The translations under genes and the position numbers were made by a program. This document shows, one piece after another, positions 61,918 through 64,000 of a stretch of 64,000 nucleotides of DNA. The DNA lies in NCBI RefSeq assembly GCF_003334335.1, contig NZ_QOWQ01000027.1; one strand, written 5' to 3'. Under the pieces are notes generated by a model. That model saw only the letters and a program-made list of their open reading frames with translations, was not told the origin of the DNA and did no database searches. This stretch comes from Escherichia coli. Lineage in GTDB: Bacteria; Pseudomonadota; Gammaproteobacteria; Enterobacterales; Enterobacteriaceae. Every line of letters begins with the position of its first letter. Positions within the stretch are counted from its first letter, which is position 1.

Positions 61918-61924
61918 AATAATC

Positions 61925-61958
61925 AAGGGGTTACCAAATGGTAGCCCCTTTCTTTTTT
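61925..61958 (+). terminator. Rho-independent terminator of serT
   Basis: Hairpin AAGGGGTTACC-AAAT-GGTAGCCCCTT followed by TCTTTTTT. Confidence 0.7.
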
Positions 61959-62055
61959 GCTCTTAGTATACACTTGGTATACTAATTGGTATATTTAGCT
62001 CAATACACACTAGGTACATTGTTCTCTTTACGATTTATCGCTATACCGATGAATT

Positions 62056-62406
62056 ATGAATAACCCCAATCCATGCATGACGTGTGGTGCCTGTTGTGTA
62101 TTTTTCCGCGTCTCTTTTTACTGGGCTGAAGCCGATGATGCTGGCGGAAACGTCCCGGCCACTCTCACTGAGCAAATATCTCCTTTTCATCGCTGTATGA
62201 GCGGCACCAATCAGAAAAAGCCCCGATGTGTCGCTCTGGCGGGAACTCCGGGTGAAAACGCATATTGCTCTGTTTACAAAAACCGTCCGTCCACATGCAG
62301 GGAATTCGCAATGTCCGGCGAAAATGACATCGCGAATGAAGCATGTAGCCGCGCACGGGCAAAATACGGACTTCCGGAAATAGAGCCTGTACATAGATTT
62401 GTGTAA
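62056..62406 (+). CDS. YkgJ-family (CxxCxxCC zinc/iron-chelating domain) protein, 116 aa
   Basis: ORF track; N-terminal CMTCGACC motif and further conserved Cys, resembling the K-12 YkgJ family. Confidence 0.7.
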
Positions 62407-62560
62407 TTGCCTGATTTTGATATGTTCAATCCAGCATCAAATGAAGGTTAATTTATGGACGAAAAACAGTTACAGGCTCTGGTATTAGACGTCAACTAGT
62501 TTTGCCGACTCGGAAGCCTGGGAAACCGCTGACGACTGGTTTATCCAGTGACATCAGCAC

Positions 62561-62586
62561 GGGGAGTCACCAGCTCCCCTTTTTTT
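62561..62586 (+). terminator. Rho-independent terminator in the convergent intergenic region downstream of the YkgJ-like gene
   Basis: GGGGAG-TCACCAG-CTCCCC followed by TTTTTTT. Confidence 0.6.
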
Positions 62587-62763
62587 ACTGCATTATCAGA
62601 GCGGCCAGCACACAGAATGTCACCACACCACCCAGCCATACAAACAGCATGAAGCACATCGCACCCGCTGTGTATTTCCGCCTTCCGCATCTGATTTTTT
62701 TCTGTTCCATTCTCACTGCCACCGTTCAACTCTCATTACCCGACTCACGAATATGCATTCCGG

Positions 62764-63237
62764 CTACGCACGTCCAACCAGGTGCTTCACACTCCTGTAC
62801 TTAAGACCGTTTTTACCAAGCCCCAGATACAGAAAGGTGTTCACCGTCTTCGTGTTTATCCCCATTTCACGGGCAAGATGGCAGGGCTTTGACTCCCGGT
62901 ACACGTATCCAAACATCACCACCATCTCGGACATCGTCAGTGGTCGCGCATACGTATTATGTACCCACTCACCATTCCGGATTTTCCTGTACGTCTCCAG
63001 GCGCCCCGTAACATCTTCCGCATCAATCTGAAGATAACGGCGCCCCTGAAACATGCAGCACATCAGCCTGCCAAGGAGGGCATCACAGATTATCACCCAT
63101 GACTCATCATGTGCCGGTACGCTCTTCCTGTTCTCTGGTGTAAAAAACTCCCTCGCCAGTATTATCCTGTACCCCTCAAGCATCTGCTGCAGGCCATACT
63201 CCAGATAACGGTTGCGGGTCGCCAGAATCACTTTCAT
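62764..63237 (-). CDS. Small LuxR-family transcriptional regulator (C-terminal HTH; GadE/DctR/EcpR-like size class), 157 aa from the SD-supported ATG
   Basis: ORF track 62764..63309; the upstream part of the track ORF overlaps a terminator, so start set at ATG 63237 with AGGTGA SD (alternative ATG at 63255); HTH-like LTMSEMVVMFGY...GINTKTVNTFLY. Confidence 0.65.
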   Translation of the reverse strand: MKVILATRNRYLEYGLQQMLEGYRIILAREFFTPENRKSVPAHDESWVIICDALLGRLMCCMFQGRRYLQIDAEDVTGRLETYRKIRNGEWVHNTYARPLTMSEMVVMFGYVYRESKPCHLAREMGINTKTVNTFLYLGLGKNGLKYRSVKHLVGRA

Positions 63238-63263
63238 CGCTGTCACCTGTTTCATGCTCACAT

Positions 63264-63299
63264 GAGAAAAAACGGCAGGCAAAACTCCACGCCTGCCGT
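63264..63299 (-). terminator. Rho-independent terminator downstream of the autotransporter gene
   Basis: Minus-strand hairpin ACGGCAGGC-GTGGAGTTT-GCCTGCCGT followed by TTTTTTCTC. Confidence 0.65.
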
Positions 63300-63323
63300 C
63301 ATGCTTCATGTCACTGTCAGCAA

Positions 63324-64000
63324 TTAAAACTCGAAGTTAACGCCCATGTTGTAGGACACATCGCCATCACTCGCTGCAATACCCGCTTTCGCTGCGGTCT
63401 GCTCGTTGAAACGGTAACCAACACCCACGGCAACAGCCTGTTTATCACTGTACCCCCCCAGGGCAGCAGTGGCGTTGAATTTCCCCACACTGTACGGCTG
63501 GAAAAGCCCCGCCAGCGCTGCACTCTGTGCTGCTGCACGCTTCATCTCTTCGTGATTCTCACGAATTTGACGCTGCTGGCTGTTCAGGCGTGCATTATGC
63601 TCCTGCAACTGGCGAGTATTGGACTGAATAGCCTGTGTATTTTTAGTAACCCGGCGGTCAACGCTACCAACTGCATAATCAATACGGTCTGTTCTGCCAG
63701 ACAGAGCAACGAGACCATCATTGACGGCGATAGTTTTAGTCGCACCTTCTGCACGGGTAAGTTTTCCGTCAGGGTTCACACCAACTGTCGTTCTGGAGTC
63801 TGTATATTCACGAGACTTTTTCGCTTCGACTACAAGGCGGGTATTCGTATCCTGAGCCAGTTGCTCAACACTGTCTTTTACCCGATCAACCTGACGAACA
63901 GTTGCTGCATCGGATGGGCGAGTTCCATCAGTCAATCCTCCAAGGGTGCGGGTTTTATATGCTTTACCAGAAGCCTCTTCATAACCAATGTAAACTTCAT
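63324..64000 (-). CDS. C-terminal part of a YadA/Eib-like trimeric autotransporter adhesin (coiled-coil stalk plus beta-barrel anchor); 5' end beyond window
   Basis: Frame is open to the window edge; C-terminal [19 protein letters not shown]...GVGYRFNE...MGVNFEF matches the YadA-type membrane-anchor pattern. Confidence 0.75.

Follow-up and report, generated by a model that had tools for sequence, protein, structure and literature searches.

The gene set behind serT in an Escherichia coli contig is very probably one end of the lambda-like prophage P-EibE

Which element occupies the position downstream of serT, a tRNA gene, in Escherichia coli assembly GCF_003334335.1, where yccA would be expected? 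We addressed this question for a stretch of 64,000 nt of contig NZ_QOWQ01000027.1 (subsequently designated the window), whose 3' end falls inside the gene eibE. The gene order pga, efe, put, rut, wrbA, tor, gfc/etk, app, hya renders the window collinear with another annotated E. coli genome, and hyaA and hyaB are located upstream of serT on the minus strand. A single tRNA was detected by ARAGORN in the final 9 kb, namely a tRNA-Ser with the anticodon TGA at 61830-61917 (+). Rfam RF00005 agrees with this assignment, and the tRNA was the sole RNA match of Rfam at the locus formed by serT and the genes behind it. yccA is not present in the 64-kb window. An initial annotation had reported that serT is followed instead by a gene for a YkgJ-like protein on the plus strand and, convergently, by genes for a small LuxR-family regulator and a YadA/Eib-like trimeric autotransporter, and it had suspected insertion of a mobile element at the 3' end of the tRNA gene. 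The data presented below indicate that the segment reaching from a crossover zone at 61858-61917 as far as the window end is very probably one end of the lambda-like temperate prophage P-EibE. This end is the tail-fibre or 'b-region' side of the prophage, which is equivalent to the attR junction of lambda.

Megablast against phage records aligned positions 62302-64000 with GenBank entry AF151676 ('Bacteriophage P-EibE', host E. coli ECOR-9) at 1699 of 1699 positions, i.e. without gaps and at 100% identity. AF151676 carries annotations for eibE (immunoglobulin-binding protein EibE, 487 aa), orf-156E and orf-191E. Owing to this identity, the autotransporter gene can be addressed as eibE and the small gene of 157 codons as ORF-156E. 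The in-window part of the proposed autotransporter gene on the minus strand thus has a name, and the following features could be assigned (kcal/mol values are fold energies):

62764-63237, minus strand: ORF-156E, 157 aa, with a predicted compact receiver-like domain and a predicted NarL/GerE-type helix-turn-helix (HTH)

63271-63300, minus strand: intrinsic terminator of eibE (terminator scan, -21.8 kcal/mol; annotated as a stem_loop in AF151676)

63324-64000, minus strand: 3' part of eibE (codons 264-487 and stop codon), encoding stalk, immunoglobulin (Ig)-binding coiled coil and YadA-type anchor; 100% identical to AF151676

Window and P-EibE record accordingly have in common 1,699 identical bases, eibE, orf-156E and the annotated stem-loops. 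The record comprises 3,455 bp and ends inside the ykgJ-like gene, so that it lacks the att site and serT; the integration junction is added by the window. P-EibE of ECOR-9 is reportedly the subject of work by Sandt and Hill from the year 2000.

The full serT/ykgJ/ORF-156E/eibE junction was found in 5 of 5,426 complete E. coli genomes, with identities of 97.8-99.9%. A sixth genome, JE86-ST02, matched only from position 61858 onward. Among the five genomes sharing the junction, UCPROB-002 is the one that was annotated in full. Its gene order is hyaA, serT, the gene of the YkgJ-family protein, ORF-156 (annotated as hypothetical), the gene of the YadA-like protein (487 aa) and DUF4376, followed by tail fibre, Lom, J, tail genes, capsid, portal and terminase, by lysis genes (holin/lysozyme), three tRNAs, Q, RusA and replication P and O-like genes, and by dicB, exonuclease, DUF4224, a tyrosine integrase, a 60-bp serT 3' half, yccA and tusE. 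The element in UCPROB-002 is a lambdoid prophage of ~50 kb. In PHROGs, a 339-aa protein of this genome matches the integrase families phrog_7244/phrog_1, and the DUF4224 protein matches excisionase family phrog_1266. The UCPROB-002 copy is identical to the P-EibE clone of ECOR-9 at 3455 of 3455 positions, which reaches orf-191E past the end of our window. The yccA end is where integrase and DUF4224 excisionase are encoded in UCPROB-002, JE86-ST02 and O157:H7; neither of them is present in the window. Indeed, everything that was to be sought further downstream according to the initial annotation, i.e. an integrase, phage genes and a direct repeat of the serT 3' end, is present in UCPROB-002, where int and the 60-bp serT repeat adjoin yccA at the far end. 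Insertion of a mobile element at the serT 3' end with displacement of yccA is therefore borne out by the identity with P-EibE and by the anatomy of the junction in relatives.

In JE86-ST02 (fetched stretch L005, 4840-6549), int, arm, 60-bp core, hairpin, arm, ykgJ, ORF-156 and eibE follow each other without interruption, and the fetched stretch runs on into tail-fibre genes, Lom and J. As int, an attP-type junction and ykgJ are contiguous in this genome, tandem prophages at serT with a regenerated attP are implied.

Occupation of the site was assessed with an empty-site query composed of 418 bp ending at the serT 3' end and 417 bp of the native downstream sequence reaching into yccA. Uninterrupted serT-yccA was detected in 4,664 of 5,426 complete genomes (86%), the listed genomes including a K-12 DH1 derivative and BAP1, which we take to be a BL21 derivative. 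Alignment to other E. coli genomes, as proposed earlier, hence places yccA directly behind serT in the large majority. Interrupted sites mostly break at query position 359, which corresponds to 61858. A query spanning int, att and yccA was found whole in 743 genomes, including O157:H7; ~14% of complete E. coli genomes hence carry a prophage with an integrase of this family at serT. CAVP776 (NZ_CM176338.1; fetched stretch L014, 3598-5220) carries a second, unrelated element at serT. It encodes a 412-aa integrase in opposite orientation, has amino-acid permease and creatininase genes adjoining yccA, and its break is located 14 nt before the tRNA 3' end (query position 405).

Could the genes behind serT represent a non-phage genomic island instead, with a P4-type integrase and metabolic or virulence cargo? 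CAVP776 demonstrates that serT can host such an element. However, the CAVP776 element interrupts the query at position 405 rather than 359 and has no genes in common with the element studied here, and the junction in UCPROB-002 leads into a full lambdoid set of structural, lysis and regulatory genes. We consider a genomic island very improbable.

Additional evidence for integration of P-EibE came from comparison of the flanking backbone. UCPROB-002 and the window differ at 4-30 sites per kb (~13) over 41611-61673, and at no site over 61674-64000 (2.3 kb). For the backbone at 54000-61857, i.e. the 7.9 kb preceding the att block, identity reaches 100% in E. coli B, BL21, C and several enterotoxigenic E. 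coli (ETEC) strains, and none of these strains is among the five carriers of the junction. Presence of the same element in diverged backbones, together with presence of the same backbone without the element, indicates recent horizontal acquisition. The content of guanine plus cytosine is 0.55-0.60 in hya, but only 0.44-0.53 in the insert.

These data also bear on the idea that the gene set is ancestral at serT and was lost by deletion from most strains, K-12 among them. That a few strains possess it would be compatible with this scenario, and nothing else speaks for it. The set occurs in only 5 of the 5,426 genomes and is thus far from common to all E. coli, the empty sites are precise, scarless and equipped with the native terminator, and the far end of the element carries the 60-bp direct repeat and an integrase. 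Moreover, divergence is zero in the element as compared to 1.3% in the flank, and the identical backbone exists without the element. An ancestral origin can therefore hardly be entertained. Misassembly, in which unrelated contigs would have been joined at the tRNA, has a negligible probability: the same junction is present in five independently assembled complete genomes, the cargo part had been cloned from ECOR-9 and deposited as AF151676, and the joining point coincides exactly with the att identity block that is used by 743 other prophages.

Use of this site by phages has precedents. serT is a prophage site in O121:H19 Shiga toxin-producing E. coli (PMC8767318) and the site of a Shiga toxin 2f (Stx2f) phage in E. 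albertii (PMC10673567), and yccA has been named as site of an Stx2k phage (PMC8065619). A full-text literature search for yccA, serT and prophage together found nothing.

How might P-EibE have entered serT? The features at the junction are the following:

61830-61917, plus strand: serT, tRNA-Ser(UGA), intact (ARAGORN, Rfam RF00005); the 5' part is chromosomal, the 3' part lies within the att identity block

61858-61917, no strand: 60-bp att identity block, tRNA position 29 to 3' CCA (exact match to fetched stretch L002, 29304-29363)

61925-61958, plus strand: phage-borne terminator hairpin and T-run, in place of the native serT terminator (terminator scan, fold energy, alignment)

61974-61993, plus strand: two tandem TTGGTATA repeats, candidate arm-type integrase-binding sites in the cargo-side att arm (motif counts)

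The 60-bp block begins at the second base of the anticodon stem (tRNA position 29) and ends at the terminal CCA. It recurs as an exact 60-bp copy between int and yccA in UCPROB-002, and its first base, 61858, is precisely the position at which serT is interrupted in other genomes and at which the match to JE86-ST02 starts. The crossover would accordingly have taken place somewhere within 61858-61917. Blocks that span the tRNA gene between anticodon stem and 3' end are typically associated with integrases whose crossover takes place in the anticodon loop, as reportedly found in the tRNA-sublocation survey by Williams of 2002. Beyond the 60 bp, the phage-side and the yccA-side copies are diverged yet homologous, and a hairpin with T-run is present in both. 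The phage-side hairpin of the window (61925-61950) has the sequence AAGGGGTTACC-AAAT-GGTAGCCCCTT (-18.8 kcal/mol) and also occurs in attP of phage Evi, while the native serT hairpin adjoining yccA has the sequence AAGGGGTTAGC-TAAAT-GCTAACCCCTT (-21.6 kcal/mol). As the phage supplies its own serT 3' half and terminator, the serT gene stays intact. Just past the phage-side hairpin, two copies of TTGGTATA start at 61974 and 61986, i.e. 12 bp apart. One copy is located in the int-side arm (L002 29193), and one plus three copies are found at matching places in attP of phage Evi. This 8-mer occurs only 4 times across the 64-kb window. From their number and placement, the repeats may serve as arm-type binding sites for the integrase.

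These features suggest the following scenario. A phage tyrosine integrase, together with an excisionase of the DUF4224 type, would have recombined attP of the phage with the chromosomal attB, represented by serT. attP would comprise 60 bp that duplicate the serT 3' half, from anticodon stem to CCA, and its own terminator hairpin. After this event serT would be intact, with a 3' half and a terminator now supplied by the phage, while the original serT 3' half and terminator would have been displaced by ~50 kb to a position beside int and yccA. The region between att arm and tail-fibre genes would act as a cargo slot, filled here with the YkgJ-family gene, a dinI-like remnant, a possible membrane peptide gene, the gene for ORF-156E, a predicted NarL-like DNA-binding protein that would act independently of phosphorylation, and eibE.

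Comparison with known phages is in line with this arrangement. The tccP2-bearing serT/yccA prophage of O157:H7, which we believe to be Sp4/CP-933M, possesses an integrase with 99.4% identity, an identical excisionase protein and the same 60-bp att block. It also exhibits the same layout, i.e. serT, cargo, tail fibre, Lom, J and so forth up to int and yccA, but where P-EibE has ykgJ, ORF-156E and eibE, its cargo slot contains an EspV fragment and a tccP2 pseudogene. Escherichia phage Evi (LR597642), deposited as a phage genome, is ordered exo, xis-like gene, int, attP, cargo, tail fibre, Lom and J. Between attP of Evi and 61858-61996 of the window identity amounts to 96.5%, and both the terminator hairpin and the TTGGTATA arm repeats are shared. 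The cargo of Evi consists of an EspV fragment and small open reading frames and lacks an eib gene. Evi and JE86-ST02 are two independent records with attP in its unrecombined form, and these attP-type junctions provide the only, indirect hint at excision, induction or particle formation.

Between serT and ORF-156E, the cargo slot of the window contains the following features:

62056-62406, plus strand: gene for a YkgJ-family CxxCxxCC cysteine-cluster protein, 116 aa, phage cargo (Pfam PF03692, E=7.6e-12)

62382-62480, no strand: 99-bp mosaic segment, 100% identical to the Q/tRNA-Ile spacer of Stx2 phages, e.g. phage 2851

62505-62551, plus strand: 3' remnant of a dinI-like gene, last ~15 codons (by alignment; the dinI-like gene is intact in the LZSFT34 prophage)

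62561-62586, plus strand: intrinsic terminator of the dinI-like remnant (-12.8 kcal/mol, then T7)

62585-62722, minus strand: unannotated open reading frame of 41-44 codons, one hydrophobic helix (phrog_9340 of PHROGs, E=7.9e-15)

The ykgJ-like gene starts 138 bp after the tRNA, close to the ~140 bp noted initially, and is preceded by a promoter-like site at 61967-61995. Its product matches PF03692 (CxxCxxCC, UPF0153) over residues 6-97 and carries the Cys cluster C-x2-C-x2-C-C at residues 7-14 (CMTCGACC); the name of a YkgJ-family protein was also given to the UCPROB-002 counterpart by PGAP. No match was obtained in NCBIfam, PHROGs or PADLOC. In JE86-ST02 ykgJ directly follows int-attP, and several other phage records of E. 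coli carry fragments of ykgJ-like genes at their ends. The short open reading frame (MEQKKIRCGRRKYTAGAMCFMLFVWLGGVVTFCVLAALIMQ), located between ORF-156E and the hairpin, is conserved in the LZSFT34 prophage; it lacks annotation in AF151676 and by PGAP and has no match in NCBIfam. It is a possible small membrane peptide gene. An anti-phage system in this att-proximal slot was considered and dropped, as PADLOC had no match for the YkgJ-like protein, ORF-156E or the product of the short open reading frame.

The cargo slot is a mosaic. P-EibC and P-EibD of ECOR-9 and prophages of the EibG type, e.g. the LZSFT34 prophage at yecD/yecE, possess the same cargo module in the order dinI-like gene, small open reading frame, ORF-156, Eib gene, DUF4376, tail fibre, Lom. 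However, these prophages have different integration sites and att/int modules, and their eib regions are 77-94% identical as compared to 100% for P-EibE. Homology of the window to Eib-type prophages at other sites starts at ~62505, inside the dinI-like remnant, whose 5' part is missing. In contrast to the other Eib prophages, the dinI-like gene is truncated here and joined to the ykgJ/serT-attP module. By alignment, it is at this break that the serT int/att/ykgJ module and the Eib module were joined by recombination. The 99-bp segment at 62382-62480, located between ykgJ-like gene and dinI-like remnant, marks a mosaic joint.

The initial annotation had credited each of the three genes with a terminator of its own, which holds for eibE with its strong hairpin. 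The hairpin on the ykgJ side (62561-62579, plus strand) is located 155 nt past the stop codon of the ykgJ-like gene and belongs to the dinI-like remnant, although it probably also ends the ykgJ-like transcript. The terminator scan detected no terminator-like site 3' of the 157-codon gene.

Does the source strain carry the complete prophage? Several points weigh against reading the locus as one end of an intact P-EibE. The window stops inside eibE, so that tail genes, integrase and the second att copy are known only from the junction-sharing genomes. The copy in UCPROB-002 has a frameshifted J and several pseudogenes, which are either real or sequencing errors. Finally, the arm sites are candidates as to their function, and the crossover is placed within the 60 bp by inference. 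The prophage could hence be truncated or defective in the source strain. In the extreme case, a decayed remnant would be left, i.e. a cryptic prophage stump or a short cargo-only island rather than a complete, inducible P-EibE. The end of the window at 64000 with nothing visible past eibE would fit such a remnant, as would the frameshifted gpJ and several partial genes of UCPROB-002 and the broken tail-fibre genes of JE86-ST02. On the other side, the last 2.3 kb of the window exhibit 0 differences from UCPROB-002, which carries the ~50-kb prophage and whose copy is in turn identical to the ECOR-9 clone at all 3455 positions, past the window end to orf-191E. Furthermore, JE86-ST02 continues into tail-fibre genes, Lom and J, and att arm, terminator hairpin and cargo open reading frames of the window are all intact. 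We regard a decayed remnant as unlikely and favor the view that the window ends within a P-EibE prophage.

The reading frame that is open from the window end to the stop codon at 63324 (minus strand) encodes the last 224 residues of the trimeric autotransporter. The full-length EibE protein (487 aa) was taken from UCPROB-002, relying on the 3455/3455 identity of this copy with AF151676. An exact-sequence look-up of this protein returned no entry in the protein collection, and its identity rests on the DNA. Compared with the PDB, full-length EibE matched EibD (2xqh) over residues 151-396 (E=3.9e-92) and the YadA anchor (2lme; E=1.1e-17). The NCBIfam model YadA_autotrans matches residues 374-487, and the head domain is encoded beyond the window. 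Residues D378-Y388 of EibE have been reported to bind IgG-Fc (bioRxiv 10.64898/2025.12.25.695649), and ECOR-9 is listed as positive for eibA/C/D/E (PMC4352079). That the IbrAB island activates eib genes of prophages is mentioned in a title in the reference list of PMC8065619. EibE has been characterised as a surface-displayed trimeric autotransporter that binds Ig Fc non-immunologically, and the source strain may be expected to bind Ig.

What is the nature of ORF-156E, whose gene neighbours eibE in the cargo slot? The label 'LuxR-family' given to it initially finds no backing in profile searches, and only the predicted fold speaks in its favor. No Pfam domain was detected at E<=0.001 (including PF00196 GerE and Response_reg), NCBIfam gave no match, and PHROGs places the protein in a family without assigned function. 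When the ORF-156 family profile was compared with the PDB, four sub-significant matches were obtained (E=0.065-0.29, residues 94-149), all of which are LuxR/GerE-type HTH proteins. An exhaustive HMMER search with this profile retrieved 37 clusters among 1.84 billion representatives and yielded no bridge from the family to annotated LuxR families. An AlphaFold2 model built from 21 homologues is confident, with a predicted local distance difference test (pLDDT) score of 86.9 and a predicted template modelling (pTM) score of 0.82. Top Foldseek matches of the model were EvgA, LiaR, RcsB, FixJ, StyR and DesR (E ~2e-3, probability 0.93-0.99), and the predicted structure contains the C-terminal four-helix DNA-binding fold of the GerE type. 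Asp52 (D52) at the end of beta3 is invariant in the family, whereas the acidic pair after beta1 is absent and replaced by invariant T7 and N9. Compared to NarL, RcsB, EvgA and GerE, which represent the NarL/FixJ class with LuxR-type HTH, ORF-156E is ~50 residues shorter and lacks both the acidic pair and a Pfam match to GerE or Response_reg. 'LuxR-family' appears reasonable as a description of the modelled fold only, leaving a putative regulatory role.

A homologue of ORF-156E with 50% identity is encoded beside hpaBC in several E. coli genomes (fetched stretches L010-L013, ~4001-4495), near PerC-family genes and DcuA/DcuB fragments, and an Eib gene is missing from its vicinity. Linkage to Eib is therefore not strict for this family. 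It is named in no database, and sequence profiles provide no link to LuxR proteins. As a tentative idea, for which the odds are against us, this small and essentially E. coli-restricted family might consist of unrecognised miniature NarL-like regulators, in which a truncated, phosphorylation-independent pseudo-receiver is combined with a GerE-type HTH and which accompany Eib genes in prophage cargo slots. If true, ORF-156 regulators might control expression of eib or of host genes.

Additional observations concern the window outside the insertion at serT. The efeU-putP gap measures 376 bp in the window (13130-13506) versus ~2.5 kb in UCPROB-002 (fetched stretch L007, 14342-16837), where the insert encodes a 442-aa hypothetical protein. 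Matches at the gathering level of Rfam were obtained for Ysr251 (8271-8464), ES036 (25903-25945), naRNA4 (31831-31909) and the cspA thermoregulator (42592-43014), all of which are located in the backbone and unrelated to the insertion.

The element described here is already known as P-EibE and resides at a common prophage attachment site; it is nothing new in kind. The analysis makes modest additions, which leave the current understanding unchanged. P-EibE is placed at serT/yccA, the site used by this integrase family in ~14% of complete genomes; the phage is a mosaic, in which an Eib cargo module is joined to a different int/att module via the dinI-like break; and the conserved Eib neighbour ORF-156 is assigned a predicted NarL-like fold. 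Taken together, the locus very probably provides a textbook case of a tRNA-targeting temperate phage that equips an E. coli backbone of commensal type with EibE, a surface factor of virulence or colonisation.

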